Shown here in pieces: positions 20,030 through 36,442 of a stretch of DNA of 36,980 nucleotides. The stretch is from the IMG/VR virus record IMGVR_UViG_3300035492_000302, positions 1-36,980 of that record, one strand, 5' to 3'. Origin of the DNA: a virus. The notes under the pieces are model-generated. The model was not told the origin of the DNA. It worked only from the letters and a program-made list of their open reading frames with translations, and did no database searches. Within the stretch, counting starts at the first letter, position 1, and each line of letters starts with the position of its first letter. Both the position numbers and the translations under genes were made by a program.

Positions 20030-20040
20030 GTCTGTCTGGC

Positions 20041-21322: not shown

Positions 21323-21991
21323 TTACGCCGGCAAAGATCCGGCTTTTTTCAGTTCTGTTTCAATCGAAGTGATTTCGCGCTTGACGCCGCTTCGTTCGTC
21401 CAGGTCCAGGGCTCTGCGAAGGTTGGCCAAGGCGCGCTCCGGGTCTGCCTGGCGCAAGCAAAGGCCAGCAGCTTTGTACAGTTTGGCTTTCGCCTGGTCG
21501 GGCATGTCGCGCTCGGCAAGCATGCTGAGCGCCCGCTCAATCACAGCCGTTTCAAAATGGCCGTTTTCAAGGCGCAAGGCACTCAAGGCGGCATCGCCGA
21601 TTTCATCGGCCAGCATCGTTGGTACGTCGCGGTTGTACTGATCGGGAAGCGTCAGGCCATGGTCAATGACGTACTGCGCGACATCAAGACCGCGTTCGTA
21701 GTCGCCCACATCGATATACCAGACAAGCACACTGGTCAAAACATCATCCTGACCGCCTCGGCCAGACTCCAGCACCCCGGTTACCCAGGCCTCGTAGTCG
21801 GGCAGCAGCTCGCGCTTGACCTCAATCTTGCGCTCAATCGATTGGACGTCCTTGAGGCGCTGACGGTCGGTGTGCAGCTTGGCAAGCATAAGTTCGTAGG
21901 CATTGCCCTGCGGCTGGTCGCCTGGCTCAGACCGGGCGGCGAGCGAGCCCGCCATTACCCGCTGAAAGTGTCGTTGTGCTGGGCTAACCAT
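21323..21991 (-). CDS. M: Terminase small (endonuclease) subunit M
   Basis: 222 aa, downstream of N; gpM-like order and length. Confidence 0.8.
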   Translation of the reverse strand: MVSPAQRHFQRVMAGSLAARSEPGDQPQGNAYELMLAKLHTDRQRLKDVQSIERKIEVKRELLPDYEAWVTGVLESGRGGQDDVLTSVLVWYIDVGDYERGLDVAQYVIDHGLTLPDQYNRDVPTMLADEIGDAALSALRLENGHFETAVIERALSMLAERDMPDQAKAKLYKAAGLCLRQADPERALANLRRALDLDERSGVKREITSIETELKKAGSLPA

Positions 21992-21996
21992 AGTCG

Positions 21997-23022
21997 TCAG
22001 ACTCCGCCGGTATCGGCAGTAATTTCGATGTTTTCAAGCAGGCAGCCTGCACCGAAGTCCTCGACGACGTACGCATCGTTTGAGGACTCGTAGTTCTCGA
22101 TTCGGTCTCGACGTGGGTTGTCCATGATGTGGCGCCGGCGTGCGCCGATCTGGTAGTAGATCGACAAATTATCCAGCGGGGTGATCATGATGGTCTTGGC
22201 CGGGAAGAACGGCACGGCTACAGCGGTCAAACCGCCAAGGCGCTTCTGGCTCATAATGACCTGGGCGGCCAGTGTGTCGGTTGGCTTGTGATCGGCGTCG
22301 ATCAATGTGAAGTACTTCTCGTGCAGCAAATCGCGTGAAACCAGCGCCACCAGGCCTGGGCTCTGGCGATGCCAGGGGTCAATCAATGAGGCTACTGCGT
22401 CAAACACCAAGGCGTCCAGGTTCTTGTAGTCGCCGGCGCTGCCGATCGCGATTTTGCCACTGGCCGGCACCACTTCGGCAAGCACACGCGCCGGCGCAGA
22501 CTCACGATAGTGCTGCAACCAACCTTTGTTTACGTCTTGCAAAAGCGGGTTCGTGGTTCGGTTCGATGTGGGCGCGCGCGAGGTTCCGTTAAAACCGACC
22601 ATCATGCGGTCAAGCGACTGGCGCAGCAAAATAGCATCGCGCATGCGCGCCTGAAAATCGGGAAACTTGGCCCACGCATCGATTTTTGCGTATCGAACGT
22701 GCGTGTCATAGTTCATCTGGGTGCAGTTGTAAGGCTGATCATCCAGGGTGGATGGGTCGGTTGTTTGGCGATCGGTCGTGGTTGTGTCGGTAGTGCCGGC
22801 AATGGTGCTGCCAATGCCCAGCCCGAGCTTTTCGCCCTGCTGCTCGCGCACGCCGATAATGTTGATTCGCCCAAGGAACTCGTTGGACTCTTGCAGTTTG
22901 GTTTCTAAGCGCTGCTGAACCGAGGGTTCTACAGTGAATTGCGTGTTGGCGTCAGGGATGCCGTTGAGCTTGGCTACTTGCTCGACATAGGCGTTGAACG
23001 CGGCGCGGGTATCGTTATGCAT
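21997..23022 (-). CDS. N: Major capsid protein N
   Basis: 341 aa, between O and M; P2-family capsid length and order. Confidence 0.85.
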   Translation of the reverse strand: MHNDTRAAFNAYVEQVAKLNGIPDANTQFTVEPSVQQRLETKLQESNEFLGRINIIGVREQQGEKLGLGIGSTIAGTTDTTTTDRQTTDPSTLDDQPYNCTQMNYDTHVRYAKIDAWAKFPDFQARMRDAILLRQSLDRMMVGFNGTSRAPTSNRTTNPLLQDVNKGWLQHYRESAPARVLAEVVPASGKIAIGSAGDYKNLDALVFDAVASLIDPWHRQSPGLVALVSRDLLHEKYFTLIDADHKPTDTLAAQVIMSQKRLGGLTAVAVPFFPAKTIMITPLDNLSIYYQIGARRRHIMDNPRRDRIENYESSNDAYVVEDFGAGCLLENIEITADTGGV

Positions 23023-23058
23023 TCGGTGCTCCGGGTAGTGATAGGTGTCTGTCGGTGA

Positions 23059-23922
23059 TCAGATGTCGGTCAGAATCGCGCCGGTGCCGCCACTGGAAAG
23101 CGGGCGTTTCGGCTGATCATCCGGTGTCTTTTCGAGCCTCTGACGAAACTCGCGAAACTCTTTGGCCAGGGTCTCAATTTCTTTGCTTACATCGACATCG
23201 GCGACCGGCGTGGCTGACGCTGTGTTCTTGAATTTGCGCAGTTGCTCATCGAGCTGGCCAACATGCTCGGTCAAGGCCTCAATGGCTTCGTAAAGATCGT
23301 CTAAGTTCTCATCGGCCTGGGCGCGACTGGCGCGGCTAAAGCGTGCAAGCATTTCCTTGACGCGATCAGCGATTCCCGAGGGCTCCTCGTCCTCGCTGAA
23401 CTCAAGCGTGGCCTCCAGGGCTTCAGAGAAAAGGCAATCTTGCGAAGTCTTGCGAGCGGAAAAAGGCGACGCCTCAGGCTTTTGGCGTGCAAACTCAAGC
23501 ATCTGGGTACCCAAAGACGCGGGGCTGTCGGTCACCGCCAGGCCGGTCAGGTAGGCTTTACCAGTCTCAGCAAATTTGGGGGCTACCTCGATCGATGTGT
23601 AGATTTTCTGACGCTTTTTGTTGATCTCGATCAGCTCAGGCGTGGGGGAGATTTGCGCGAACAGCGCAAGCTTTCCTTCTTCGACTTCTCGGGCTTCAAG
23701 GGCAAGCACATCACCATAGGCGCGAAAGTCGCTGTCAGGGTAAATGCCGCGAATGTGCTCAAGCCAAATGCGCGCACCATAGGTCTGGGGGTCATACGTG
23801 TTGGCCATCTGCTCGATCCAGTCACGCTGGATGTGGCGGCCGTCAGTGCTTGCACCTTCGGTGGCTACGCGGAACCACTTGGATTTGAACTTCTTGGCCT
23901 GGGGGGATTGAGGTTTTTTCAT
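23059..23922 (-). CDS. O: Capsid scaffolding protein O
   Basis: Internal start M36 of ORF 23059..24027: MKKPQSPQAKKFKSKWFRVATEGASTDGR is a gpO-like N-terminus. It is divergent from P. Confidence 0.8.
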   Translation of the reverse strand: MKKPQSPQAKKFKSKWFRVATEGASTDGRHIQRDWIEQMANTYDPQTYGARIWLEHIRGIYPDSDFRAYGDVLALEAREVEEGKLALFAQISPTPELIEINKKRQKIYTSIEVAPKFAETGKAYLTGLAVTDSPASLGTQMLEFARQKPEASPFSARKTSQDCLFSEALEATLEFSEDEEPSGIADRVKEMLARFSRASRAQADENLDDLYEAIEALTEHVGQLDEQLRKFKNTASATPVADVDVSKEIETLAKEFREFRQRLEKTPDDQPKRPLSSGGTGAILTDI

Positions 23923-24103
23923 GGGGCAGTCCTGGACAATGACATGGGCAAGTAAGCGCCGGCGGCCTAGGTGGCCGTTGTGTACATAGTTGTGCAGGAT
24001 GGTCGCGGTTAGGCCGCAGTGGCTCAACCCGTGATCGCGGTTTTGTCAGTCATTACCTAAGCGCCAGAGGGAAAGGTGTACGGCGGGCAAAGACAATGCG
24101 GGC

Positions 24104-25864
24104 ATGCTTGAATCGATGCCCCCGCCCCAACATGACAACCGACGACTGGCCCGTTTTCTTTATTTTCAGGGCTGGCGCATCTCGTCGATCGCCGAATACT
24201 TGGGCGAGGCGCGCACGACCGTTTCAAGCTGGAAAGAGCGCGATGACTGGGAAAAGGTGCCGCCGGTCGAGCGTATCGAGCTGGCACTTGAAGCAAGGCT
24301 TGTCCAGCTGATCGTCAAGCCGGAAAAAACCGGCGGAGACTATAAAGAAATCGATTTGCTGGGTCGCCAGGCCGAACGTTTGGCAAGGATACGTCGGTAC
24401 AACAACGGTGGCAATGAACTTGATCTGAACCCGAAAATCGCCTCACGCAACGCCTCGCCCAAGCGCAAGTACATGCGCAACGAGTTCAGCGAAGAGCAGG
24501 CCCAGAAGCTGTCAGACGCTTTCCGTGATTCGCTTTTTGACTACCAGAAAGTGTGGCTGCGCAACAGCAGCCAGCGCACCCGGGTCATCCTAAAAAGCCG
24601 ACAGATCGGGGCCACCTGGTACTTTGCCCGCGAGGCGCTGGCTGACGCCATCGAGACGGGCCGCAATCAGATCTTTCTTTCGGCCTCCAAGGCGCAGGCG
24701 CACGTTTTCAAACAGTACATCGTGCAGTTCGCCCGCGAAGCGGCCGACGTCGATCTAAAGGGCGATCCTATTGTTTTATGGAATGGCGCGCACCTCTATT
24801 TTCTAGGCACCAATGCGCGCACGGCCCAGGGCTACCACGGAAATTTTTACTTCGACGAATTTTTCTGGACGAACAAGTTTCAAGAGTTGAACAAAGTGGC
24901 CAGCGGCATGGCCATGCACAAGAAGTGGCGCAAAACCTACTTCAGCACACCCAGCAGCACCAGCCACGAGGCCTACCCATTCTGGAACGGAGAAATGTTC
25001 AACAAGCGCCGGCAAAAGGCCGATAAGCGGTTGTTTGATGTATCGCACCAAGCACTGGCTGGCGGGCGCGTGTGCCCTGACCAGGTGTGGCGCCAGATCG
25101 TCACCATCATGGATGCCGAGGCCGGAGGTTGCGACCTTTTCGACATCGATGAGCTGCGCAACTATGAGTACAGCCCGGAAGATTTTCAGAACTTGTTGAT
25201 GTGCCATTTCATCGACGATACGGCCTCGATATTTTCTTTTTCCGAACTGCAGCGCTGCATGGTCGACTCCTGGGAAGAGTGGTCGGATTTCAAGCCGTTT
25301 GCTATACGCCCGGCAGGTCACCGAGCAGTGTGGATCGGCTACGACCCGTCACACACTGGTGACAGTGCGGGTCTAGTGGTGGTGCTTCCCCCGGGCATCA
25401 CAGGAGGCAAGTTTCGCGTGATCGAGCGCCACCAGTTTCGGGGCCTGGACTTTGCTGCGCAGGCCGAATTCATTGAGGGTCTGACAAAAAAATACAACGT
25501 GCAATACATCGGTATCGACTCGACCGGCCTTGGCCAGGGCGTTCTGCAGCTGGTCAGACAGTTCTACCCGGGGGTGCGCGAGCTGAACTACTCGCCCGAA
25601 GTAAAAACCCGCCTGGTGCTCAAGGCCAAAGACGTTATCAGTAAAGGGCGCCTGGAGTTCGATGCCGGATGGACCGATATGTGTCAGTCGTTCATGACCA
25701 TACGCAAAACGCTCACGGCCAGCGGGCGCAAGGTCACCTACGACGCCAGCCGTAACGAAGAAACCGGCCACGCCGACCTGGCCTGGGCATGCATGCACGC
25801 ACTCGATAACGAGCCGCTTGAGGGCAGCTCGGGACACAACAGAAGCTTTATGGAGATCTCCTGA
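24104..25864 (+). CDS. P: Terminase large (ATPase) subunit P
   Basis: 586 aa. RRLARFLYFQGWRISSIAEYLG...SSWKERDDW is a gpP-like N-terminus. The start could instead be M5 at 24116. Confidence 0.9.
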   Translation: MLESMPPPQHDNRRLARFLYFQGWRISSIAEYLGEARTTVSSWKERDDWEKVPPVERIELALEARLVQLIVKPEKTGGDYKEIDLLGRQAERLARIRRYNNGGNELDLNPKIASRNASPKRKYMRNEFSEEQAQKLSDAFRDSLFDYQKVWLRNSSQRTRVILKSRQIGATWYFAREALADAIETGRNQIFLSASKAQAHVFKQYIVQFAREAADVDLKGDPIVLWNGAHLYFLGTNARTAQGYHGNFYFDEFFWTNKFQELNKVASGMAMHKKWRKTYFSTPSSTSHEAYPFWNGEMFNKRRQKADKRLFDVSHQALAGGRVCPDQVWRQIVTIMDAEAGGCDLFDIDELRNYEYSPEDFQNLLMCHFIDDTASIFSFSELQRCMVDSWEEWSDFKPFAIRPAGHRAVWIGYDPSHTGDSAGLVVVLPPGITGGKFRVIERHQFRGLDFAAQAEFIEGLTKKYNVQYIGIDSTGLGQGVLQLVRQFYPGVRELNYSPEVKTRLVLKAKDVISKGRLEFDAGWTDMCQSFMTIRKTLTASGRKVTYDASRNEETGHADLAWACMHALDNEPLEGSSGHNRSFMEIS

Positions 25865-26874
25865 TGCAACAAACAGAATCAACGCCTCACATCGAGGCCT
25901 TCACCTTCGGGGATCCGGAATCTGTTCTGGACCGCTCGCAAATCATGGACTACATAGAGGCCTGGTCTAACGGTAAATGGTACGAGCCCCCGATCAGCTT
26001 TGACGGTCTGGCCAAGTCGTTTCGCTCCAGCCCGCACCACTCATCGGCCATCTATGTGAAGCGCAACATACTGTCTTCAACGTTCATACCGCACAAACTG
26101 CTCAATCGAGACACGTTCTCGCGCTACGCCACCGATTATCTGGTTTTCGGCAACGCCTACCTGGAAAAACGCAACAGCCTGGCGCAAAGCACCCTGATGC
26201 TGGAGCACTCGTTGGCCAAGTACATGCGCCGCGGCGTCGACCTGCAAACCTACTACTTCGCACACAGCTGGGGCAAAGAGCATGAGTTCAAGCCAGGCAG
26301 CATCTTTCACCTGCGCGAGCCAGATATCAATCAGGAAATTTACGGGCTGCCCGAATACTTGGGCGCGCTGCATTCGGCCTGGTTGAACGAGTCGGCCACG
26401 CTATTCAGGCGCAAGTACTACAAAAACGGATCGCACGCCGGATACATCCTGTATGTGACAGATGCGGCGCACGACATGAAAGACATCGACGGCCTTAGAA
26501 AGGCTGTGAAGGAAAGCAAGGGGCCAGGGAACTTTCGCAACCTTTTTATGTACGCGCCTGGCGGCAAAAAAGAAGGAATCCAGGTCATCCCGTTGTCCGA
26601 GGTGGCCGCCAAGGATGAGTTCTTCAACATCAAGGCAGTGACCCGCGACGATCTGCTGGCGGCGCACAGGGTGCCGCCTCAGCTGCTGGGCATCGTGCCC
26701 AACAACGTTGGCGGTTTTGGCGATGTAGAAAAAGCGGCCCAGGTATTCGTCCGCAACGAGCTTGGCCCGCTTCAATCACGAATGAAACAACTTAACGAAT
26801 GGCTGGGTGAAGAAGTGGTGCGCTTCGAGCCGTACACCATCGTGCCTCCCGCTCAGGAAACGCCAATCATTTGA
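25864..26874 (+). CDS. Q: Portal protein Q
   Basis: 336 aa, with a TGATG overlap with P. It resembles P2/PBSX-family portal proteins. Confidence 0.9.
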   Translation: MQQTESTPHIEAFTFGDPESVLDRSQIMDYIEAWSNGKWYEPPISFDGLAKSFRSSPHHSSAIYVKRNILSSTFIPHKLLNRDTFSRYATDYLVFGNAYLEKRNSLAQSTLMLEHSLAKYMRRGVDLQTYYFAHSWGKEHEFKPGSIFHLREPDINQEIYGLPEYLGALHSAWLNESATLFRRKYYKNGSHAGYILYVTDAAHDMKDIDGLRKAVKESKGPGNFRNLFMYAPGGKKEGIQVIPLSEVAAKDEFFNIKAVTRDDLLAAHRVPPQLLGIVPNNVGGFGDVEKAAQVFVRNELGPLQSRMKQLNEWLGEEVVRFEPYTIVPPAQETPII

Positions 26875-26890
26875 CCCGGCGAAAAAGCAA

Positions 26891-26919
26891 AAGGGCCGCG
26901 TTGCTGTGGCCCTTTTTTT
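26891..26919 (+). terminator. Rho-independent terminator after Q (probably bidirectional)
   Basis: aagggccgcg ttgc tgtggccctt stem followed by T7. The reverse strand also has a T-rich tail (TTTTGCTTTTTC). Confidence 0.7.
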
Positions 26920-26953
26920 CGTCCTGTTAATGGCCAGGACAAAATGCCCTTCC

Positions 26954-27151
26954 CTACTGCCGTTCTAGAAGCGCCCTTTCGTGAGCCTGGTTCAGGCGGT
27001 CAACCCAGGGCTGCATCAGTGCATGTACGTGATGTCCCGGAACCTGCTCGCCATCTACCTTGGCCAGCAGATCCTGCAGGGCTAGCAAGCCGATCAAGGC
27101 GTCTTCCATCAAATCGAAGTACACCCGTGTGTGAAGTGGCTGGTTAATCAT
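26954..27151 (-). CDS. Hypothetical 65-aa protein downstream of ant
   Basis: Internal start M29 of ORF 26954..27235. It overlaps the ant stop by 8 nt. Confidence 0.45.
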   Translation of the reverse strand: MINQPLHTRVYFDLMEDALIGLLALQDLLAKVDGEQVPGHHVHALMQPWVDRLNQAHERALLERQ

Positions 27152-28064
27152 GGCTGCCTCCGGTGTGATGATCTGCCGCACCTTGGAACACAGCGCCTTG
27201 ATCGTCGCTTTCTGATGTGCCGCTAGAGCTTTCACCCCAGGCCTGCGGCGCCCTTTCCTCGTTCTTGAACAGCCAGCAGCGCACTGACTTTTCCGTCAGT
27301 CCACTGTTGACCACGGTGCCTGGCGAAAGAAAGCGGGGTCGGCGGCTGGCCCGCATGGCGCGCAACAGATCCTTTCGGCTCATGGCGTTAATACCGCAGG
27401 CGTGCGCGGCATCCAGCAGCAGGTTCGGGTTGATGGCGATCAGCTCTGGATCACGCGAGTGGTTCATAGGGTAGCCGGCAGCGCCAAGCACTGCCACCAG
27501 ATCCCAGAACCGGCCAACGATGGGCGGTTCGCCCGGATCATTCTTGCCGATGGCCGACATGGGCGGGGTCTCGATGCCCTGGGCCAACAGCACGACGTTA
27601 AGTTGCTCCCAAAGCGTCTTGCGAACGACTGGATGGGTTTCAACCTTGAGCTTGTCCATCAGGCGCCAGCTGTGCCGCTGGCCAGCATAGTCGGGTCGCG
27701 GCTTCTTGCCTGGCATGATGTAGCTGCCGGTTTTGCGCAGGGTAGGCAGTACGTCTTCAAACACCCAGCGCTCGAACCGTTCGGCCGCCGGCAGGTGGCT
27801 GTTGACCATCAGCCGGAACATATCGGGCTCGCTGATAATGCGAGCCTCTTGTATCCGCCCCAGACTATCCACGATGGGGTGGTGTTTCACCACCCCACGG
27901 CAATGCTGCTTAAGCGCATTCACCGTGTCGCTGTAGCCCAACGCTTCGGCAACATCTTTGCCAACAAACCATACCTTGCCGTCTTCGTAAACGGTACGTA
28001 CAGCCTGCTGCTCGAATTCAAAGGTGGTGATCTGGGCGGAGTCGCCCTGGTAGTGTTCAGTCAT
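27144..28064 (-). CDS. BRO-N-domain antirepressor-like protein with a primase-C-terminal-like domain
   Basis: The N-terminus FEFEQQAVRTVYEDGKVWFVGKDVAEALGYSD is the Bro-N pattern. Residues ~186-267 align with the last ~96 aa of the primase-helicase (FWD..., NHxR.P..IA.N, VVNS, RCW.F). Confidence 0.8.
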   Translation of the reverse strand: MTEHYQGDSAQITTFEFEQQAVRTVYEDGKVWFVGKDVAEALGYSDTVNALKQHCRGVVKHHPIVDSLGRIQEARIISEPDMFRLMVNSHLPAAERFERWVFEDVLPTLRKTGSYIMPGKKPRPDYAGQRHSWRLMDKLKVETHPVVRKTLWEQLNVVLLAQGIETPPMSAIGKNDPGEPPIVGRFWDLVAVLGAAGYPMNHSRDPELIAINPNLLLDAAHACGINAMSRKDLLRAMRASRRPRFLSPGTVVNSGLTEKSVRCWLFKNEERAPQAWGESSSGTSESDDQGAVFQGAADHHTGGSHD

Positions 28065-28071
28065 GGTAGAG

Positions 28072-28337
28072 CTCCTGTGAGATTAAACCCAGCCGCCCGA
28101 TGCTAAACGGGGTGGGCAGGGCACGTGCGGGTTAGCATACCGGTCACAGGGTCCGGCGGGCCTTGCGGCCCCCCGCACGGCCTGCCCATAGAAGGCAATG
28201 CCATGAGGAGCACCAAAAGCCGCGTACCAATCTAGTGATGGCGCGGCTATTAGCGCCTGTGAACTCGGGATGCTAAACCCGACTGCCAATGGTATTGGCA
28301 GTGCCCTGACGATAGCCCGGGAAGGCGAACAAGTCAA
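28072..28337 (-). promoter_or_regulatory. ant leader: promoter, a1/b1, hairpin plus U-run, c4-like core, a2/b2 over the SD
   Basis: Elements in minus-strand order: promoter TTGACT-17-TATCGT (28337->28309); a1 at 28281->28267; b1 at 28262->28256; hairpin 28248->28218 followed by UUUU; a2 at 28112->28099; b2 at 28080->28074, overlapping the SD AGGAG at 28076->28072. Confidence 0.65.
28112..28190 (-). ncRNA. c4/CI-type antisense RNA core, copy 1
   Basis: The ~79-nt core folds into four elements: P1 GGGCAGG/CCUGCCC, P2 UGCGGG/CCCGCA, hairpin GGGCC-GCAA-GGCCC and hairpin CCGG-ACCCUGUGA-CCGG. It carries b' (CCUGUGA) and a' (AUGCUAACCCG), which are complementary to the flanking a1/b1 and a2/b2. It is paralogous to 36488..36569, with compensatory stem changes. 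Confidence 0.7.
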
Positions 28338-28373
28338 GACTGGAAGGCTGTTAAGCCATCCCGATGAGCTTTG

Positions 28374-28403
28374 ATTGTAGCAAAAGGTGCGTTTAATCGC
28401 ACC
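28374..28403 (-). promoter_or_regulatory. Second upstream promoter candidate with an 18-bp palindromic operator
   Basis: Extended -10 TGCTACAAT (28382->28374) lies directly downstream of the perfect palindrome GGTGCG-TTTAAT-CGCACC (28386..28403). The palindrome arms match the Pe dyad at 2524..2541. Confidence 0.35.
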
Positions 28404-28599
28404 ATTTTTATTTATAGGTGCGCAACATCGCAAGCGCATGGGCTCAAACGCTTGGCTGGCAGGCATCCCAGGATTTTCGCACCAGGCACGCCCAGCAGGC
28501 CCTCTTTCAGCACCTACGCCCCAAGAATCGCGCTACCCTCCGCGCCTGCGATCAAAGTTTGTTGCAAACGCCAAGACGCAACGGACACGACGATGGGAT

Positions 28600-28945
28600 G
28601 GGTAAAAATAAAAGTTGACCTTCGGAACAGTGTAACCTTCGAAATCGTCAGGTTTTCGACTATCTAACTTGTTGATTTCATGCCTGTTTTTTGGTCACGG
28701 TAGCAGCGTCACCTGACGTAACCTGTACTGTAACCGAAATACTAAGCCTATGATTTTTATAGATATTATTTTTTAAAAAAGTTTCTATCATCTACCGTAA
28801 TCGGGTCACGCTCCGATTACATAAAAAGTTACCGTACTACAAATTATTAAAACAAGGCGCAGTCTATCTATCCAGGCATTTCATTACCTAAGTTATAAAA
28901 GTTACAGTGTTCCCGACACCCCCCAGCCTAAATTTTTAATCTACA
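28600..28945. other. AT-rich non-coding island with iterated motifs (candidate attP arm, origin or cos region)
   Basis: No credible ORF. Motif copies: GTTAC(A/C)GT-type elements inverted at 28628-28636, 28717-28723 and 28727-28735, and direct at 28828-28836 and 28901-28909; TAAAAGTT at 28609, 28822 and 28896; inverted repeat gtaatcgg/ccgattac at 28797-28820. An extremely AT-rich centre lies at 28745-28790. Confidence 0.5.
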
Positions 28946-29143
28946 AAGAGCCGGGCAAACTACCTCGATCTGTTGCTGAACACTGCTCTTGCCCAGCTGT
29001 TGCAGGCGACGTCATCGGTCGCAGTCTCACCCTGTTTATGGCCAATGAATAAGGCCGCGCTAATGTGGCCCGGTTGACCTGGTAAACGCGCCTGGCCAAG
29101 GCCGCTTGGCACCTGGCCACAAGTAGTCTTGGCGTATTTTTTT

Positions 29144-29154
29144 GGGGGACTTTT
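29144..29154 (+). repeat. GGGGGACTTTT 11-mer, P-arm copy (candidate integrase arm-type site)
   Basis: Exact 11-mer, extendable to the 14-mer GGGGGACTTTTGGG shared with 29402..29415. It lies ~130 nt upstream of the tRNA-like core. Confidence 0.45.
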
Positions 29155-29282
29155 GGGTAAGTTTTCTGTACACGACTGTGCAGGACAGTACAAAACGGTG
29201 TATCAGAGCGCACATTTAGGTAGTAAGACGTGCGAAAATACGCTATATATCAAGGCGTTATGTGCGGCTTTTATCACCCTTA

Positions 29283-29331
29283 TTGGCTACGAACCAAGGG
29301 GTCGTGGGTTCGAATCCTGCCAGCCGCGCCA
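29283..29331 (+). other. attP core: 3' portion of a tRNA-Arg(ACG) gene (anticodon arm to CCA)
   Basis: ttgg-CTACGAA-ccaa anticodon arm (anticodon ACG), T-loop GGTTCGAATCC, acceptor 3' strand plus gCCA. It closely resembles the E. coli tRNA-Arg(ACG) 3' half as I remember it. The upstream part lacks a D-arm, so it is not a complete tRNA. Confidence 0.55.
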
Positions 29332-29360
29332 GAATTGCCCTGTTAAATCAACAGGTTAAA

Positions 29361-29397
29361 ACCGCCTAGGGGCGCAATCCCTAGGCGGTTTTTCTTT
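29361..29397 (+). terminator. Strong hairpin plus T-run (bidirectional terminator; contains the int stop codon)
   Basis: accgcctaggg gcgcaat ccctaggcggt is an 11-bp perfect stem followed by TTTTTCTTT. On the minus strand it is followed by TTTTAA. Confidence 0.65.
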
Positions 29398-30583
29398 GTG
29401 TGGGGGACTTTTGGGGGACTTTTCCGCCAACAACCTCGATCTGCGATCGGCGCAATATGGCCAGCAGATTGATAGTCTCCCCCACGCAACCCTCTTCTTT
29501 GATCAGTTCCAGTGCCGCATAAACTTCGCGGATCTGGGCTACTGCGTAATGGCTGGTCATGTCTCGTTTCGAGTGCCAAAGAATCTCATCTTGCGTACGC
29601 TCGGAAACGCCGGCGTTTCGCAAGCGCATTCCGACCGTGTGCCGCAAGTCGTGAACGTGCAGATCGCCCAGCCCTGCAGAGGCTCTGGCGTTCTGCCAGG
29701 CCGTGTTGTGCATATCACTGATCGGCAAGTACTTTGGCTTGCTGCCGAGCTTATTTGACACGCGCCTTGACCAGGTAAACACCCGCTCAGGGTGGCGGCC
29801 GCGCTGCGCGTCAATGATCTGCTGCCCAAGGCTGTTGCAAAAAAGAAGCCGTTCGGACTTGCGGCCTTTGACGTACTCACGCGGCACCACAAAAACCGAG
29901 ACTGTCGTCTGTTCAGACAGGGGCACCTGAACTTCCCAGCGCCAACGTAGCTGGCACACGACATTCTTACGGGCACCGCTGTTCAGGCAGAACATGGCCA
30001 TGTCGACCAGGTGGGTCGGCAGGTGCTGCATCAACAACTTTTGTTCGGCCCATGTGATTGGCTGTGGTGCGCGCTGGTCGCTCAGATCAAGCATCGTTAT
30101 TTTGGGTGCCGATTCCAGCCAGGTCAGACGATTCTCAGGAAACCGCCATTGGGTCGCCGCCAGGCGAAGGATCCTGCCGACAATCGATAGCGTGTTGTTC
30201 AGGGTTTTGTTTTTGATGCCCTGGCGCTTACGCTCGCGAATGAAGCCGGCAAGTGTTTCGTCGCATATATCCTGAAGTGTTAAAGAGCCCAGCCTCTGAA
30301 CGACCGGCAGTAACAGATAGGCGTCTGTTTCAGCCGATGGCATGTTTTTGGCTTCTTTCTCTTCCAGATAACGGGTTGCTGCGCGCTCGAAGGTGACATC
30401 CGGCCTTGCGGCCGGGTTGTCGGAAAACTGCTGGATGCTGAATTGTTCCCGCGTCAGGTAGTCTCTCGCCTGCCTGTGATCCGTAAAGCCACGCTTTCGA
30501 ATGCGCCTGTTTCGGTACTGACAGTCGACCTGCCATGTGCCGTCCGATTCCTGGTAGATGCCTGTTTGTTTGACTCGTACCAT
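29381..30583 (-). CDS. int: Tyrosine recombinase / phage integrase
   Basis: 400 aa. The C-terminal catalytic-region motifs HDLRHTVGMRL and ...LWHSKRDMTSHY (R..HxxR..Y pattern) are present. It is adjacent to the tRNA-like attP. Confidence 0.9.
   Translation of the reverse strand: MVRVKQTGIYQESDGTWQVDCQYRNRRIRKRGFTDHRQARDYLTREQFSIQQFSDNPAARPDVTFERAATRYLEEKEAKNMPSAETDAYLLLPVVQRLGSLTLQDICDETLAGFIRERKRQGIKNKTLNNTLSIVGRILRLAATQWRFPENRLTWLESAPKITMLDLSDQRAPQPITWAEQKLLMQHLPTHLVDMAMFCLNSGARKNVVCQLRWRWEVQVPLSEQTTVSVFVVPREYVKGRKSERLLFCNSLGQQIIDAQRGRHPERVFTWSRRVSNKLGSKPKYLPISDMHNTAWQNARASAGLGDLHVHDLRHTVGMRLRNAGVSERTQDEILWHSKRDMTSHYAVAQIREVYAALELIKEEGCVGETINLLAILRRSQIEVVGGKVPQKSPTQRKTA
29402..29423 (+). 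repeat. GGGGGACTTTT x2 in tandem, P'-arm copies (inside the int 3' end)
   Basis: Two abutting exact copies ~75 nt downstream of the core. Confidence 0.45.
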
Positions 30584-30792
30584 TTCATTTCTCCTGAATT
30601 GGCACGCTTACTACCTGCAACCAGTTTATACCGATCCCAAAAATCATCGAGGTCCTGCTTTTCGTAAATTATGGATGTACCGGCGCGCACAGCTTTGTCG
30701 CGCAGCTGCGGAATGACAGTTTGCTCAAAGAACCTGCGGCCCACGCCCAGGTAGGCCTGGGCTTCTTTGGTCGTGAATCCGCGCTTGATCAT
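30454..30792 (-). CDS. Excisionase/AlpA-like HTH protein
   Basis: The N-terminal 55 aa (TTKEAQAYLGVGRRFFEQTVIPQL...IYEKQDLDDFW) look like a Xis/MerR-type HTH. The 3' 130 nt overlap int, so the true C-terminus is uncertain. Confidence 0.5.
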   Translation of the reverse strand: MIKRGFTTKEAQAYLGVGRRFFEQTVIPQLRDKAVRAGTSIIYEKQDLDDFWDRYKLVAGSKRANSGEMKWYESNKQASTRNRTAHGRSTVSTETGAFESVALRITGRRETT

Positions 30793-31115
30793 TGGTTGAG
30801 ACCGTCAGCTGTTGAAATGTATTTTTCCATTGCCAAATCGATTTCGGCGTCGGCAAGTTTGCCAGTTAAAACTCGGTAACTGGCCGGATCGCACGCCCAG
30901 TCAACCCGAGTAATGCAAATGTCAACGGATCCATCGCTTTCGGGTTTGGTGGCGTGTCGATATCGCTCTGCATTTTTCTTCCAAGTCTGGACGTCTGGCG
31001 ATTGCATGGCGGCGCGGTAACCGGCAAGAAATAGTTGCCAGTGCGTGTGCCATGGCCATAAACCGTTATGCATTACCCAGAGATCAAAGGCCTCTTGTTC
31101 ATGCGGATCGTTCAT
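30789..31115 (-). CDS. Hypothetical protein
   Basis: 108-aa ORF, ATGA-coupled on both sides. Confidence 0.5.
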   Translation of the reverse strand: MNDPHEQEAFDLWVMHNGLWPWHTHWQLFLAGYRAAMQSPDVQTWKKNAERYRHATKPESDGSVDICITRVDWACDPASYRVLTGKLADAEIDLAMEKYISTADGLNQ

Positions 31116-31786
31116 GCGGAGATCTCCTTTTCAAATGCGCCGATCAGGTTCATAAAGCGTTGAAGGCGCTGGTATTCGGTTGGATCAAGTTTGATGCTGG
31201 CCCAGTTTTTGGTCAGGATGATGGCGCCATTGCTGTGCCACAAAAAAGCAAATGGCTGGCCCGGGGAAAGCTCAGACGACTCTTCTGGCTGCGGGCCTGA
31301 GCTGGTGGCCGAAGCTGTGGCCCCTGCGTCAACAGCGGGCACGGGATTTCGGTCAGACTTTTTGTGATTGATGCGTCGGGGCGTTCCCGCATCGATATCG
31401 ACGCCTGCAGGCGTTTGCGCCTGGCTGGCGACTGGCGGCCGCACAGCCGCTCTGGCCAGCAGACCTTGCCGAGGCTGCAGGTTAGGCTTGGCCCGCTCTG
31501 CGGGTTGTGGCTGCGCCCGTTCCTGATGAATTGGCTCGTCGTCGTCACGCGGCAAGGGCGTGCCGTCACCAAGGGCGAAGTGGTACAGACCGTTGATTTT
31601 TTTCTTTCTCAGCAGGCCGTGATCGATCGACTTGTTCAGTGCCGTGATGACTGCCGAAGAAGGCTGATCCATGGCGGCCGATAGCGGGCCGCTGGCGATC
31701 CATTTGCCCTCTGGCAAAGTTTTCAGGTATTGGATGACACGCCAGGCCAACGTAGCTGGGTGTGGGGTGTAGTCTTTGTTAGTCAT
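31112..31786 (-). CDS. Hypothetical protein (possible N-terminal winged helix, disordered middle)
   Basis: 224-aa ORF in the operon with a P/A/Q-rich central region. Confidence 0.5.
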   Translation of the reverse strand: MTNKDYTPHPATLAWRVIQYLKTLPEGKWIASGPLSAAMDQPSSAVITALNKSIDHGLLRKKKINGLYHFALGDGTPLPRDDDEPIHQERAQPQPAERAKPNLQPRQGLLARAAVRPPVASQAQTPAGVDIDAGTPRRINHKKSDRNPVPAVDAGATASATSSGPQPEESSELSPGQPFAFLWHSNGAIILTKNWASIKLDPTEYQRLQRFMNLIGAFEKEISA

Positions 31787-31817
31787 GGTTCACCTGGTGC
31801 AATTCGGTTGACTGGTG

Positions 31818-32024
31818 TCACTCATCAAAGGGCACAGACTTTTCTTTTAGGCACTTTGTGCACTGAACGGTTTTGGTGCCGTTCCAGGCAATGCCTAGTG
31901 TTTTCCATTGTTGGTGCCGGCAGAACAGGCGCTGGATAAGCACCAGAATGATCAGAAGGACCCAAACGGAAAAGCCGATGAGCGGCAGCAGTATCCCGAT
32001 GAGCAAGGCGGTATGAAGTTCCAT
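31818..32024 (-). CDS. Small membrane protein with a Cys-rich tail
   Basis: 68 aa: one long hydrophobic stretch (LLIGILLPLIGFSVWVLLIILVLI) followed by C...CxxC. Confidence 0.45.
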   Translation of the reverse strand: MELHTALLIGILLPLIGFSVWVLLIILVLIQRLFCRHQQWKTLGIAWNGTKTVQCTKCLKEKSVPFDE

Positions 32025-32026
32025 GG

Positions 32027-32479
32027 TCAGGCCTCTTTAAATTGGTTGATCTTACGGGCCGGCTCCTGGCCGATCAGGGCCGCTTGCCAGGCGGTGTCGT
32101 CGTGCTTTGACCACATAGGGTCGCCAGGCCGGTAGCCGGCAATGACCTTGCCCAGCGTAATAAGTGCTTGGGCAGCGGTAATGGTGACCTTGGGCACGGC
32201 AGGGTCGATGCCTGCCCACAGTGGCGGTTTGTCGATCGCCTGCAAGGCGATGTCGACGCTCAGGCCGTGGCCTTCGGGCATTCTGGCCAGTTGTCCGGCC
32301 AGCATGCGCAGCTGGGCGGCTTGCAGTTCATTGTGCACCAGGCTGGCGTGATGCTCTTTGAGCAGCTTCTCGATTTTGTGCTCGAACTCGGCAAAGGACA
32401 TCAGACGATCCTTTTGCCCTTTGCTCAGGCTGTCACAGTAGGCGTGCATGGCGCTCATGATGTCGCGCTTTCGGTTCAT
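32027..32479 (-). CDS. Hypothetical protein
   Basis: Internal start M27 of ORF 32027..32557 (ATG at 32479). Confidence 0.5.
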   Translation of the reverse strand: MNRKRDIMSAMHAYCDSLSKGQKDRLMSFAEFEHKIEKLLKEHHASLVHNELQAAQLRMLAGQLARMPEGHGLSVDIALQAIDKPPLWAGIDPAVPKVTITAAQALITLGKVIAGYRPGDPMWSKHDDTAWQAALIGQEPARKINQFKEA

Positions 32480-32578
32480 ATTCACGGGTCGACCTCTTTG
32501 GGTAAGGTGTGGGTTGAAGGGCTGGCAGCGGTGCGAAGAGATAGACCTGCATCGCACATTAAGTGATTGGTTCTGTGT

Positions 32579-33160
32579 TTACTGGTCGCCCGCCTGGTCG
32601 AGCAGGTCAGGCTGGTACGGAATGCCGAGTTCGCCGGCAGCTTTTCCGATCATTCGATCAAGCAACTGGCGATCTTTGCTTGAGGCCAGTGCTGTCTTCG
32701 TTCTTAGAAGAGAGTTCACCAACATGTATTGGCGGCGCGTAGCGTCTTGCGCCCGAGCATGATTCAGGTTGAAGGCTGCGCCCAGCTGTTCGTAGTCATG
32801 CAGGGCGTCTGCCCACTCTTCAAGTTTTTGCTCCAGGAATTCCGCTGATGACTCGTTACCATTAACGCGCACTCGCTCCGGATTGATAGACATCAGATAA
32901 GCGGCAACGCGCGAAATTAGAATGCAGGTTTCCTCTCTTTTTTGACCACCTGCACCCCCCTTAAGTAGGGTGCAGACCCCCAAAAATCTGACCAGATAAG
33001 GGTTGCCAGTCACTTTTTTTCGCTGCTGTTCCCAGCGCAGGCCAAATAATTCAACGATGGGCTTAAGCGGTGTACAGTCTTCGCCCTTGTTGTTTTTGAC
33101 CACATCCAGTTGCATGCCTGCGTAGTTGATCGAAATGGTAAGTCGATTGTTTTCGTTCAT
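32579..33160 (-). CDS. P22 Ant N-terminal-domain-like protein (paralog 3)
   Basis: TCILISRVAAYLMSINPERVRVNG...EEWADALHDYE; shares these motifs with the two paralogs at the contig junction. Confidence 0.6.
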   Translation of the reverse strand: MNENNRLTISINYAGMQLDVVKNNKGEDCTPLKPIVELFGLRWEQQRKKVTGNPYLVRFLGVCTLLKGGAGGQKREETCILISRVAAYLMSINPERVRVNGNESSAEFLEQKLEEWADALHDYEQLGAAFNLNHARAQDATRRQYMLVNSLLRTKTALASSKDRQLLDRMIGKAAGELGIPYQPDLLDQAGDQ

Positions 33161-33199
33161 TGGTAAAGCTCCTTTTCGCTGGTTTTCTGCCTTACCCGG

Positions 33200-33493
33200 T
33201 TAGTCGTCGTCACCGCTTGCGCGGCGTTTTATGTCGGGCTGGGCGCTGTTTTTGCCGGGCAGCGGGCTGATGTATAGGGTGTTGCCCTGGGCGTGCAGGT
33301 TGTAGCGCCGATGCGGGTCGGCCTGGTTGGCTTGTGCCAGGTTAAGCAGGCAGGTGGCGATGGCCGGATTCTGCATGGCCTGTTCCAGGGTGCCGCGAAG
33401 GCGCGCCTGGCGATGCGCTTGCTGCAGCTCATGCCAGGTGGCCTTTCCCTGACGGCGGGCTGCCGGGACGATGATTTTTTCTGTATCGCTCAT
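33200..33493 (-). CDS. Hypothetical protein
   Basis: 97-aa ORF with an ATGA overlap with the primase stop. Confidence 0.5.
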   Translation of the reverse strand: MSDTEKIIVPAARRQGKATWHELQQAHRQARLRGTLEQAMQNPAIATCLLNLAQANQADPHRRYNLHAQGNTLYISPLPGKNSAQPDIKRRASGDDD

Positions 33494-36192
33494 TTGGCTG
33501 TGACTCCCTTCTCAAAGACCCAGCAACGCTCCGATGTGCTGATGTTTTTTAGTTCGCGGGCCTTGATGGCGCTGTTGACGACTTTCTGGCCCATGTAGCG
33601 ATGGCGCTTGCTGGTTTTGAGCAAGGCCTTGAGTTCGCGCAGCGGTGGCATTTGTTGTTTGTGCTCGATGGCCACCTGCAGCACGTGGTTCAGGTTCAGG
33701 GCGATTTCCTGCGGGCTGCGGGCGTGGTTAAGCGTGGGCTTTTCTTCGTCACCGTTCAGGTAGTAGTACATGTCCCAGAACTCTTGCACCATGGGGTGAT
33801 CGGAGTCGATGGCTTGCTCGCGCTGCTTGGCCATGGCCAGGATTTGCAGCCGCAGTTGCTGGTGCTGTTCGTCGCTGAGGCGAACGACCAGGCGCAGCGC
33901 GTCGGCCAGCGCCAGCAGCTGGCCATGGCATTTGGCGATACGTACGGTGCGGATCTCGGGATCTTGCAGCAGCTGGCGCTCGTACATGGGCGCTTTTTCG
34001 TCGACCAGTTCTAGTATCTGGGCCTCACGCAAGGTGGCCGCCAGAATGAAGCCCGAAACCGTATCCATGGGCATGCGTTCGAGCAGCTTGGCTGCCTCGG
34101 CGGTGTCGCGGCTTTGTGTGGAACGGTCAAAGTACAGATGCACGATACGCGTCATGACCGCATCGGAGGCCGAAACAGGGTTGTTCTGGCTGATAACGAT
34201 AGCCCCGCGAAAGGGCGGCTCGTAGGTTTCGTTGCCGCCGTTGGCTACGCCACGGCTGCGCACGCTGCGCCCGTTATAAGCGGTTTTCAGCTCGTCCCAG
34301 TCAAAGGCGCGCACCTTGGGGTTGTTCTCGCCGGTTTGCTCACGGTCTGACTCGATCAGTACGACCGGCATGCCCGAGACCTGGGCAAAGTTGCGCGCCC
34401 GGGCTGCGGCCGTGGATTTTGACGGGTCAAAGCCTTCGTAGTCTTGCCGACCGAACAGCTTCCACATGAATTCGATCAGCGTGGTTTTGCCTGACCCGGC
34501 CTCCCCTACGATCTCAAGGAAAGGGAACGATTTCTGGCTGGCGCGGATCTGCTCGGCAAACAGGCTGCCAAACCAGAACGTGAGCGCGGCCAGCCCTTTA
34601 GCACCAAAGGCACTGGCCATCGGTTCGATCCAGCCACGGTCGTATTCGGTGCGATCGTCGTTGATCTGCAGGTTGACCGACTGGCTGAGCGTCTTGACCG
34701 AGAGCTTGCCCATGTCGAAATAGTCTTCGTCGTTGATCTTGTGCACCTTGCCCTTGGCCACCGCGAGCTTGCCCAGGATGTAGCAGCCGTACTCGCGGCT
34801 GTAGCCGGTGTAGTCGACGGTTTCGACCTGTTTGATGGCGTACAGCTGGCGCTCCAGGGCGCGATCAAGGTGCATGTTCGAGCCCGAATACATGGCCCCA
34901 GGCGCGATGGCCAGCAGGCGTTTTTTGAATTCCGAGGCGCTGGACAGCTGCGCGCTGGTGAAGGTGTTCTTGACGGCGCCGCCGTCGTGGGGGAATTCCA
35001 CCCGGAAGTAGTACCAGGACTCGTCGGTAATGCGGTTGGCCTGGTAGTACAACGGGTAAGGGTGGCAGTTGGCGATTTGCCGGATGCCGCCCGATTCTTG
35101 CATGGCCTGCTCGCGCAGCTGCTCGGGATCCATGTCGGGGTGCTCTTCGGCGATGCGGTCAAGCGCCCGGTGATAGGCATCGACGTTCAGGCTGAACCAG
35201 TACAGCCGACGGCCGAACTCAAATTCAAATTCGCTGCGTTTGGGGTTGTGGCCATACATGAGCATGGCTTTCTCGGTGGCCGTCTGGGCCATGAGCAGCG
35301 CACCGTTATACAGATAGTCTTTCAGGCCTTCGGTGCCTAGCCTGTGCTTGGTGGCGTCGGGCTCGGACCGATCGAGCATGTGCAGGTCGTTCCAGTCTTG
35401 CTTGCGCTGACCCTGCTGGCCAATGAACGCGGCCTTGGCTGGCCAGCCGTCGGTGCGGGCGCGTGTAACGTGCTTGCGCATGTAGTCGCGCCCTGCTTTG
35501 TCGCCGTCGTATGCAAAAACGAGTTTGACCGGGTTGCCGCCGCGTTCTTCGAGCAGCTTGGCCAAGGCCTCGTGCGGGTAGTTGCTGCAGCTGATGTTGG
35601 CCGCCGCTGCCACACCGTGGTGCCACAGCGCGATGGCATCAAAGATGCCTTCGACCAGCCACAGCTCTTCGGTCTGCGTCAGATCCAGGCCAGGCGGCGT
35701 CCACCACTGGCCACGAAAGGTGCCCCCGCGCTGGATGTGCGCTTTCATCTTGCCAAAGCGCTCGGGCTGGTCGATCAAGCGCTCCCACCAGGTGTTGGCC
35801 ACTTTGAAGCGCACGGTGGCCGAACCGATCTGGCGTGCCGGGTCGAAAAAGTTCTCTTGGGTGTAGGCCCCGCGCAGGCGGGCGATGTCAAAGCCCCGGC
35901 CGATGGCCAGATAGGCATCGGCAGCGGCGTTGGGGTTGGTGGTTTGTTCGGTGGCGTAGCGCTTGGACCAGTTTTCAAACAGGTCGGGGTACAGCTCTTT
36001 AACGTGGGCCTCGTAGCCGCAGTTATTCAAGCGACCACATTTGACCACCCAGGGCGATTCGGCATGCGTCCAGAGCTCTTTCTTGCGGCACGATGGGCAG
36101 ATGCCCCCGCGCAGGTAGCCGGCGCGTTCCTTGAACTCGAATTCGGTCAGGCGGTCGCTGAGCTCTTTCAAAAGGGCGTCATTCATGCTCAT
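33490..36192 (-). CDS. Primase-helicase (P4 alpha-like replication protein)
   Basis: I chose M53 of ORF 33490..36348. Motifs: Zn ribbon CPSC...CGRLNNC; TOPRIM-like LVEGIFDAIAL and YDGDKAGRD; Walker A GEAGSGKTT. Confidence 0.85.
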   Translation of the reverse strand: MSMNDALLKELSDRLTEFEFKERAGYLRGGICPSCRKKELWTHAESPWVVKCGRLNNCGYEAHVKELYPDLFENWSKRYATEQTTNPNAAADAYLAIGRGFDIARLRGAYTQENFFDPARQIGSATVRFKVANTWWERLIDQPERFGKMKAHIQRGGTFRGQWWTPPGLDLTQTEELWLVEGIFDAIALWHHGVAAAANISCSNYPHEALAKLLEERGGNPVKLVFAYDGDKAGRDYMRKHVTRARTDGWPAKAAFIGQQGQRKQDWNDLHMLDRSEPDATKHRLGTEGLKDYLYNGALLMAQTATEKAMLMYGHNPKRSEFEFEFGRRLYWFSLNVDAYHRALDRIAEEHPDMDPEQLREQAMQESGGIRQIANCHPYPLYYQANRITDESWYYFRVEFPHDGGAVKNTFTSAQLSSASEFKKRLLAIAPGAMYSGSNMHLDRALERQLYAIKQVETVDYTGYSREYGCYILGKLAVAKGKVHKINDEDYFDMGKLSVKTLSQSVNLQINDDRTEYDRGWIEPMASAFGAKGLAALTFWFGSLFAEQIRASQKSFPFLEIVGEAGSGKTTLIEFMWKLFGRQDYEGFDPSKSTAAARARNFAQVSGMPVVLIESDREQTGENNPKVRAFDWDELKTAYNGRSVRSRGVANGGNETYEPPFRGAIVISQNNPVSASDAVMTRIVHLYFDRSTQSRDTAEAAKLLERMPMDTVSGFILAATLREAQILELVDEKAPMYERQLLQDPEIRTVRIAKCHGQLLALADALRLVVRLSDEQHQQLRLQILAMAKQREQAIDSDHPMVQEFWDMYYYLNGDEEKPTLNHARSPQEIALNLNHVLQVAIEHKQQMPPLRELKALLKTSKRHRYMGQKVVNSAIKARELKNISTSERCWVFEKGVTAK

Positions 36193-36436: not shown

Positions 36437-36442
36437 GACTGA

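Follow-up and report, generated by a model that had tools for sequence, protein, structure and literature searches.

How is an antirepressor gene kept silent in a temperate phage that also has a protein repressor switch? The question is raised by the leader of ant, a BRO-N antirepressor homolog gene on the minus strand of the viral record IMGVR_UViG_3300035492_000302 (IMG/VR, positions 1 to 36,980), whose 36,980 nucleotides (nt) are hereafter called the window. The initial annotation, made from the sequence alone, had proposed for this leader (28072-28337) an antisense-RNA switch of the P1 c4/P4 CI type. Based on the analysis described here, the cassette is very probably a C4/CI-type antisense-RNA switch, which would be processed to a stable RNA and would keep the ant gene of a temperate P2-family phage silent by repression. 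Visible in the sequence are the fold of the RNA, the duplication of its targets, a b2 that overlaps the ribosome-binding site (RBS), the leader terminator, and the covariation of three a and three b sites. The ant leader is a clear but ordinary new example of the C4 device; the family is well known, and the host phage type is somewhat less familiar.

Organization of the ant Leader and Its C4 RNA

The leader was read on the minus strand over 27400-28700, with each motif placed by script, and all leader coordinates refer to that strand. The elements listed in the initial annotation were all recovered where it had put them. In the order of transcription, the cassette consists of the following features.

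28309..28337, minus strand: sigma70-like promoter, -35 TTGACT at 28337-28332, 17-nt spacer, -10 TATCGT at 28314-28309; 9 of 12 matches
28282..28302, minus strand: 5' hairpin ACUGCCAAUACCAUUGGCAGU, first stem of the IsrK/c4-a1b1 module
28281-28267, minus strand: a1 target CGGGUUUAGCAUCCC, in the loop of the hairpin CGGG-UUUAGCAU-CCCG at 28281-28266
28262-28256, minus strand: b1 target UCACAGG, perfect 7-nt complement of b'
28215..28248, minus strand: leader terminator, hairpin AGCCGCG...CGCGGCU at 28248-28219, then UUUU at 28218-28215
28108..28193, minus strand: C4 antisense RNA core, closing stem 28188-28113, 3' tail ACCCC
28150-28144, minus strand: b' CCUGUGA, loop of core hairpin 2
28138-28128, minus strand: a' AUGCUAACCCG, joining strand of the core
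28112-28099, minus strand: a2 target CCCCGUUUAGCAUC, in the hairpin CCCG-UUUAGCAU-CGGG at 28111-28096
28080-28074, minus strand: b2 target UCACAGG, overlapping the ant Shine-Dalgarno AGGAG at 28076-28072, 7 nt before the ATG
27144..28064, minus strand: ant, 306 amino acids (aa), BRO-N domain aa 9-126, C-terminal domain aa 181-267

The core at 28108-28193 is matched by the Rfam family C4 (RF01695) along the entire model (1-87 of 87), with 62.0 bits against a gathering score of 45 and an E-value of 7.9e-10 for the whole window, and it scores 85.4 bits with a model built in this analysis (R1). Folded alone, it forms a closing stem and two hairpins (-51 kcal/mol, z -4.3) in agreement with the Rfam C4 alignment, and both bear out the proposal that b' is exposed in a hairpin loop. 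Over 40 homologs, 15 of the 22 core pairs show compensatory changes in which both sides changed and the pair was kept. The core also shows a closing stem like that of a tRNA and, at its 3' end, a conserved ACC(C) tail.

Upstream of the core, two further Rfam families align with the leader. The family c4-a1b1 (RF03163) matches 28262-28315 at full length with both hairpins aligned (32.9 bits, gathering score 46.7, E 2.2e-6) and begins within the -10 region, and isrK (RF01394) matches 28213-28302 with all three hairpins aligned (33.7 bits, gathering score 50, E 2e-5). The isrK alignment takes in both upstream hairpins (5' and a1), b1, and the terminator hairpin along with its U-run, and on this basis the beginning of the leader is read as an IsrK/seqA-like short RNA module. 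A check with the Rfam covariance models had been suggested in the initial annotation; it gave a clear C4 match (62 versus 45 bits), while the c4-a1b1 match stayed below its gathering score in spite of an E-value of 2e-6.

The promoter is the sole promoter-like site (TTGACT-17-TATCGT) within 27900-28700. Transcription is predicted to start at ~28302, where position 1 of the isrK model aligns, and DNA homology with the closest relative, the locus L002, starts at 28291. The 5' hairpin is paired in the isrK and c4-a1b1 alignments and is formed in the minimum free energy (MFE) fold. The leader terminator has a 7-bp GC-rich stem, a 16-17-nt loop and four U; it aligns with the terminator of the isrK model and is kept, with compensatory stem changes, in L002, in a second cassette of the window (copy 2, described below) and in a Bordetella phage. 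A transcript ending there would be a short a1b1 RNA (~85-90 nt) that corresponds to IsrK or to the P4 seqA RNA.

On the downstream side, a2 sits, like a1, in the loop of a 4-bp hairpin, which refines the earlier description of this site. The overlap of b2 (28080-28074) with the Shine-Dalgarno (28076-28072) stands as described, and the ant ATG lies at 28064. In homologous cassettes the start codon is found 61-71 nt past a', so the geometry is conserved. The regulated gene was correctly recognized as a BRO-N antirepressor homolog, as it matches Pfam Bro-N (7e-22) and PHROG antirepressor families (phrog_130, Ant); by this domain and family annotation, Ant is a putative antirepressor.

Antisense Pairing and Its Covariation

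Motif location confirmed that b' is a perfect 7-nt complement of both b1 and b2. The a' site forms a duplex of -20.2 kcal/mol with a1. When the two flanks were shuffled with their dinucleotide content kept, any one 7-nt complement to a' or b' reappeared in 3-13% of cases. Of 20,000 such shuffles, 31 had both b sites, 102 had both a sites and none had all four. The antisense pairing in the ant leader is beyond chance. The sequence GTTTAGCAT is present just twice in the entire window, both times at the a sites of this leader. The bare 7-mer TCACAGG shows no enrichment across the window, and the argument therefore rests on position and joint occurrence.

For the covariation analysis, IMG/VR was searched with an a'-region pattern, which gave 80 loci. 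Together with the Bordetella phage locus L001 and the two copies of the window, these made 74 distinct contexts, 43 of which passed a C4-context filter; three chance matches elsewhere were removed, and 36 of the rest had distinct b' segments. Across these 36 cassettes, the mean length of the longest perfect complement between b' and b2 is 7.17 nt within a cassette and 3.88 nt when b' is set against the b2 of other cassettes; between b' and b1 the means are 5.72 and 3.86 nt. Neither observed mean was reached in 10,000 permutations.

The a' site covaries in another manner. Its variable base is C in 35 cassettes, with G as the a2 partner in 35 of 35 and as the a1 partner in all 26 in which the pattern found an a1 site. 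In the ant copy this base is A, with U opposite in both a1 and a2. The a' of L002 reads ACGCUAA and that of the Ralstonia phage YO037_1 UUCUCAC, and their a1 and a2 sites both carry UUAGCGU and GUGAGAA, respectively. These are triple compensatory changes of a' with a1 and a2, and the layout a1b1 - c4(a'b') - a2b2 put forward in the initial annotation is backed by the covariation across relatives. The comparison suggests that specificity lies mainly in b', with a' as a largely conserved anchor.

A Second C4 Cassette and the Ant C-Terminal Domain

The window contains a second, paralogous cassette at the head of a replication operon.

36443..36719, minus strand: second cassette, heading the operon of orf79 and a P4-alpha-like primase
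Minus strand: promoter TTCACC-17-TATACT of copy 2; a1 at 36662-36648, b1 GACAAAGG at 36643-36636, terminator following
36571-36484, minus strand: C4 RNA of copy 2, b' CCUUUGUC, a' CUGCUAACCCG; Rfam C4 61.3 bits
36488-36475, minus strand: a2 of copy 2; b2 at 36453-36445, on the Shine-Dalgarno

The 5' module of copy 2 scores 41.4 bits with c4-a1b1 and 40.6 bits with isrK. Its b' (CCUUUGUC) matches its own b1 (GACAAAGG) and its own b2 and has another specificity than the b' of the ant leader; the a' sites of the two cassettes differ in one base, which is compensated. The b duplexes reach -11.4 to -14.7 kcal/mol with the sites of the own cassette versus -5.4 to -9.4 kcal/mol with those of the other, whereas the a sites hardly discriminate between the cassettes (about -20 versus -18 kcal/mol). 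No C4 was found upstream of related primases in five viral contigs, nor in L009 and L012.

Residues 181-267 of Ant are 32% identical (E 1e-9) to residues 852-946, the last ~95, of the P4-alpha-like primase of the same phage. The related domains are encoded at 27144-27524 (Ant aa 181-306) and 33490-33800 (primase C-terminus). In an AlphaFold model, the Ant C-terminal domain is a helix/strand winged-helix-like unit with a predicted local distance difference test (pLDDT) score above 90, and the tail of the protein adds ~35 aa of low confidence that overlap a 93-aa open reading frame (ORF; 26954-27235). A sequence search of the PDB with the C-terminal part gave no match, and Foldseek of the Ant model against the PDB gave a best E-value of 3e-3 (DdrC) and retrieved no primase origin-binding domain. 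The proposed connection to origin binding is therefore based on the 32% identity to the primase encoded in the window. In the related locus L004 the Ant C-terminal domain is encoded as a separate ORF.

The C-terminal domain of P4 alpha binds the origin. Given the Ant-primase C-terminal homology, the product controlled by the switch might compete or cooperate with the primase at the origin, instead of or besides being a classical antirepressor. This is speculative, and so is the wider idea to which it belongs, that of two mutually insulated C4 riboregulators in one phage, one on the replication operon as in P4 and one on the accessory Ant, with the ant copy driven away from the specificity of the other. 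In the ant copy, b' differs from that of copy 2 at several positions, and the a' change is compensated in both a1 and a2.

Proposed Mode of Action and Its Alternatives

As seen in the sequence, a constitutive-looking sigma70 promoter starts the leader at ~28302, and the leader presents a1 in a hairpin loop, b1 and the intrinsic terminator, then a three-way-junction RNA of ~77-86 nt exposing b' in a hairpin loop and a' in a joining strand, and last a2 in a hairpin loop and b2 over the ant Shine-Dalgarno. By analogy with P1/P7 c4, P4 CI and Gifsy-1 IsrK/STnc1160, the cassette would work as follows. Transcripts that read through the terminator would be processed to a stable C4 RNA. Its a' and b' would pair with a2 and b2, mainly through b'/b2 with a'/a2 assisting, so that the RBS is occluded and Ant is not made in the lysogen. 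Pairing of the C4 RNA with a1/b1 on nascent leaders, together with the terminator, would give autoregulation by premature termination as in P4. The short a1b1 RNA would compete with a2b2 for C4, and ant would be turned on, in the manner known from IsrK, when this RNA is in excess or C4 is lost. The Ant protein then made would inactivate the helix-turn-helix (HTH) repressor of the phage (2495-2989, plus strand) and derepress the early operon.

Several observations weigh against this reading. The a' site pairs with a2 over 7 bp alone, at -7.2 kcal/mol versus -20.2 kcal/mol for a1, so that repression at the RBS would rest mostly on b'/b2. The gathering scores of c4-a1b1 and isrK are not reached in the ant leader. 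With its large loop and just four U, the leader terminator is weak, and a simple terminator scan did not pick it up. In the MFE fold of the unprocessed leader, a1/b1 pair with a'/b' in cis and the C4 closing stem is broken; the order of folding and processing would therefore matter, and the same pairing makes competition by a1/b1 physically plausible. The C-terminal domain of Ant is like the primase C-terminus and unlike known repressor-binding domains, and the HTH repressor is a predicted target of Ant. Finally, RNA processing, stability and repression are inferred.

It is possible, though we doubt it, that termination is the main control, as in P4, with C4 acting on a1/b1 (and a2/b2) of the nascent leader to cause premature termination and with RBS masking secondary. 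In 28 of the 36 cassettes, b1 and the core are separated by a hairpin with a U-run. The a'/a1 duplex is by far the strongest (-20.2 kcal/mol), and copy 2 heads a primase operon exactly like P4 CI; the description of P4 immunity quoted in the Gifsy-1 work also fits (PMC4825925). However, an overlap of b2 with the Shine-Dalgarno is seen in essentially all cassettes, and covariation with b' is stronger for b2 than for b1, which argues for selection on RBS pairing. In addition, the terminator precedes the C4 gene, and full termination would stop C4 synthesis as well.

An activation switch of the IsrK type is unlikely to be the principal function. Here, the terminated a1b1 RNA would act in trans as an anti-antisense or remodelling RNA that frees the RBS and turns ant on under particular conditions. 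The isrK model does cover hairpin 1, a1, b1 and the terminator (33.7 bits, E 2e-5; 40.6 bits in copy 2), and a1b1 and a2b2 compete for the same a'b' surfaces. In Gifsy-1, prophage induction requires IsrK, and supplying it in trans increases the translation of AnrP ~140-fold (PMC4825925). On the other hand, the isrK match is under the gathering score of 50, and there is no coupled ORF like orf45, since b2 lies on the Shine-Dalgarno of ant itself. In the C4/CI-type switch preferred here, a block of translation, termination as in P4 and activation by the short RNA as with IsrK may each have a part.

Phage Genome and Genomic Setting of the Cassette

The first and last 127 nt of the contig (1-127 and 36854-36980) are identical, an exact terminal direct repeat, from which it follows that the contig is a circular assembly of 36,853 bp. 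The window is a single circular molecule of this length, a complete P2-family phage genome. One molecule carries Q-P/O-N-M-L, tail genes, an alpha-like primase, int, attP and cos, as in Peduoviridae of the phiCTX/phiRSA1 type, and the portal protein is 65-68% identical to Peduoviridae portals. In phiRSA1 and phiCTX, both Peduoviridae, the plan runs from Q-P/O-N-M-L through tail genes, D, the repressor and an early operon with an alpha-like primase to int, followed by attP, cos, an accessory (moron) gene with its own promoter, and Q. The window is organized identically, and the ant cassette occupies the moron slot from cos to the portal gene Q, where phiCTX has ctx and phiRSA1 has type VI effector genes. 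The features that define this setting are listed below.

28386..28403, both strands: bidirectional terminator-like hairpin GGTGCG...CGCACC, 6 pairs, T-runs on either strand, just upstream of the cassette promoter
~28531-28549, minus strand: cos candidate GGCGCGGAGGGTAGCGCGA, resembling the P2 and phiRSA1 cohesive ends
~29290-29335, directly after the int stop: tRNA 3'-end-like sequence ending GCCGCGCCA, probable attP, counterpart of the 45-nt phiRSA1 attP
2495-2989, plus strand: HTH repressor gene, divergent from the early operon with ribbon-helix-helix (RHH) and Ogr/Delta genes

The hairpin at 28386-28403 would shield the ant cassette from transcription coming from the int/attP/cos side. By resemblance alone, GGCGCGGAGGGTAGCGCGA is probably cos. 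The tRNA 3'-end-like sequence is probably attP; it is the only tRNA-like sequence noted, and a tRNA gene search of the whole window found no complete tRNA gene. The protein repressor switch that had been noted for this phage was found as well, in the form of the HTH repressor gene divergent to the early operon. That operon includes three paralogous P22_AR_N-like ORFs, all on the minus strand (449-1288, 36736..566 and 32579-33160), two of which adjoin the second C4 cassette on its upstream side. Counting the BRO-N Ant, the phage has four antirepressor-like genes. The ORF at 36736..566 (227 aa) spans the circular junction, and its 189-aa form from an internal Met is P22_AR_N-like.

A P2-like helper prophage adjoined by a P4-like satellite, with the two C4 RNAs mediating helper-satellite cross-talk, was considered and rejected as very improbable. 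An integrase, an AlpA-like gene, a P4-alpha-like primase and a CI-like RNA do lie together at 29381-36740, and full-length Ant homologs also adjoin such alpha-like primases (L009, L012). Against it, the 127-nt exact terminal repeat makes one circular 36,853-bp molecule, the maps of phiCTX and phiRSA1 share the same single-phage plan (primase, int, attP, cos, moron, Q), and the tRNA-like fragment by int is probably attP rather than a prophage junction. Coding-like evolution of the leader, which the initial annotation had proposed to look for, can practically be dismissed, for although a 127-aa frame (28083-28466, minus strand) is open across it, indels of 1-2 nt break this frame in L002, homology begins at the predicted transcription start and not at the ORF start, and structured-RNA models fit, with covariation.

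Relatives and Distribution of C4 Cassettes

The closest relative, L002, has a leader 77% identical to that of ant and an Ant 61-62% identical. In L002/L003, L004-6 and L007, too, an Ant homolog adjoins the portal gene of a P2-like prophage. Full-length Ant homologs were found in metagenomic and genomic contigs only; there were no close relatives in IMG/VR and no full-length Ant in isolated phages, in which the BRO-N part alone matches.

C4 RNAs upstream of antirepressor genes are common. In viral contigs, the first ORFs after C4 encode BRO-N (7), ORF6N (4), P22_AR_N (2), AntA (2), Rha (2), KilA-N and ANT, and with model R1 a C4 was found 40-700 nt upstream of BRO-N genes in 10 bacterial genomes. 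One of these, on chromosome 1 of Burkholderia lata (L142, 6812-8108), carries two tandem C4-then-BRO-N modules in one locus. In the Bordetella avium phages vB_BaM-IFTN3-9, a C4 (53 bits) directly precedes the gene of a BRO-N protein, for which the annotation is antirepressor (Rha family), and an AntA/B gene. The C4 region of vB_BaM-IFTN7 (L001, OM293956; 2963-3472), and also that of IFTN3 and IFTN9, is overlain by an opposite-strand coding sequence (CDS) annotated as 'integrase' or 'hypothetical protein', which is probably a mis-annotation. Adjacent C4 and isrK matches were also reported in a Xylella genome annotation (PMC12189769).

The Ralstonia phage YO037_1 (L188, ON170081; a Peduoviridae GenBank record) has an unannotated C4 of 62 bits at 9960-10200. 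Its cassette is complete (a1/b1/terminator/a2/b2) and lies ~500 nt from the portal gene, in the same cos-Q slot; the downstream ORFs are small and not BRO-N. No C4 was detected in five sampled P2-family phages (phiRSA1, RSY1, KS14, phiCTX and Milagro). The initial annotation had regarded such a switch as not expected in a P2-type phage with a protein repressor. This view is weakened by the frequency of C4 before antirepressor genes and by the C4 of YO037_1 in the same slot; moreover, a C4 in a phage with a protein repressor is not very surprising, because without a protein repressor an antirepressor has nothing to act on; P1 likewise possesses such a repressor.

Related prophages show other contents at this position. 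In the P2-like prophage L004, the Rfam family sRNA-Xcc1 matches at the C4 position (6167-6254 and 7875-7962) with the same three-way fold, and the loop of its hairpin 2 (CUAGUUG or CUAUCU) complements the Shine-Dalgarno region of the next ORF (CAACUAGGAGG or AGAUAGGAGG), with the two copies covarying. Based on these complementary loops and covarying copies, sRNA-Xcc1 may be a C4-type leader antisense RNA rather than solely a trans-acting virulence small RNA. In the Cupriavidus P2-like prophage L007, GmrSD and HEPN defence genes (2929-5141) lie between the Ant homolog and the portal gene, which indicates that the cos-Q slot is also a defence hotspot; neither C4 nor sRNA-Xcc1 was detected upstream of the ant gene of L007.

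The established picture of C4 RNA action is unchanged by these results. They add an example, clean and verified by sequence, of C4/CI/IsrK-type RNA control among the P2-family phages, for which protein repressor switches (C/Cox) are more familiar, and they show that the cos-Q moron slot can be occupied by a self-contained module of a putative antirepressor that would be gated by RNA. The comparative data are direct covariation evidence that b' sets specificity and that a' is a common anchor. Such cassettes are often unannotated in phage records or hidden under spurious CDS calls. The more interesting residue lies in the two differently specified C4 cassettes of one phage and in the primase-like C-terminal domain of Ant.

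Comparison With Known Systems

The P1 c4, P4 CI and Gifsy-1 IsrK literatures are tied to one architecture by the ant leader. In P1 and P7, Citron and Schuster (1990, 1992) reportedly described a processed antisense RNA of ~77 nt from the leader of the operon that it represses. The a' and b' loops of c4 complement a1/b1 upstream and a2/b2 downstream, and differences in a' and b' give heteroimmunity. The 5' end of the C4/CI RNA is made by RNase P in P1 and P4. The immI region of P1/P7 (c4 - icd - ant1/ant2) and the ant cassette are alike in the leader-encoded RNA, in the pairing of a'/b' with a1/b1 and a2/b2, in b2 at the RBS and in the antirepressor product, which acts on a separate protein repressor (a putative role for Ant here). 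It was reported that c4 blocks ant expression through pairing around the RBS (PMC12197685; for immI see also PMC8546580). The ant leader differs in that it has no icd-like ORF, as the ATG follows b2 and the Shine-Dalgarno after 7 nt with no ORF between, and in its intrinsic terminator between b1 and the core. Ant itself combines BRO-N with a primase-C-terminus-like domain, and the host is an integrating P2-family myovirus, whereas P1 is a plasmid prophage.

The immunity of P4 (seqA - CI RNA/seqB - seqC) is said to have been worked on by Deho, Sabbattini, Briani and Forti from 1992 to 2000. It shares with the ant cassette the Rfam family, the order of promoter, upstream target, CI and downstream target, and leader terminators that are, or here would be, coupled to the RNA, and copy 2 of the window precedes a P4-alpha-like primase operon. 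CI is described as acting by transcription termination, whereas the downstream target here overlaps the Shine-Dalgarno; P4 is a satellite and the element studied here a full phage. A summary of P4 immunity is available (PMC4825925).

In Gifsy-1 of Salmonella, a terminated RNA, IsrK, is followed by a processed, complementary RNA, STnc1160, and by the antirepressor AnrP, whose mRNA arises by read-through of the terminator (PMC4825925). The authors liken IsrK to P4 seqA (PMC4825925). The ant leader has the same succession of a short terminator-ended 5' RNA, a complementary RNA that would be processed and a putative antirepressor gene, and the isrK model aligns to it. Gifsy-1, by contrast, is lambdoid; its middle RNA is read as a 45-codon ORF (orf45) whose translation is coupled to that of anrP, and activation by IsrK is what is stressed. 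The corresponding RNA of the ant leader is a clear C4 by Rfam, and a coupled ORF is absent.

Among the newly compared phages, vB_BaM-IFTN3-9 resemble the window in a C4 cassette before antirepressor genes and YO037_1 in a C4 cassette in the cos-Q slot; their a'/b' specificities are others, and the Bordetella phages are not P2-like in that region. The small antisense RNA sar of P22 blocks translation of the antirepressor mRNA (PMC12197685), the same action that is predicted for the C4 RNA of the ant leader. Unlike this C4 RNA, sar is a true cis-antisense RNA from the opposite strand, without the C4 fold or the duplicated a/b targets. The initial annotation had equated the layout with that of P1/P7 immI; the order a1b1-a'b'-a2b2 stands, but with a terminator between b1 and the core and no icd-like ORF the layout of the ant leader is closer to P4 immunity and to Gifsy-1 IsrK/STnc1160/AnrP than to P1 immI.

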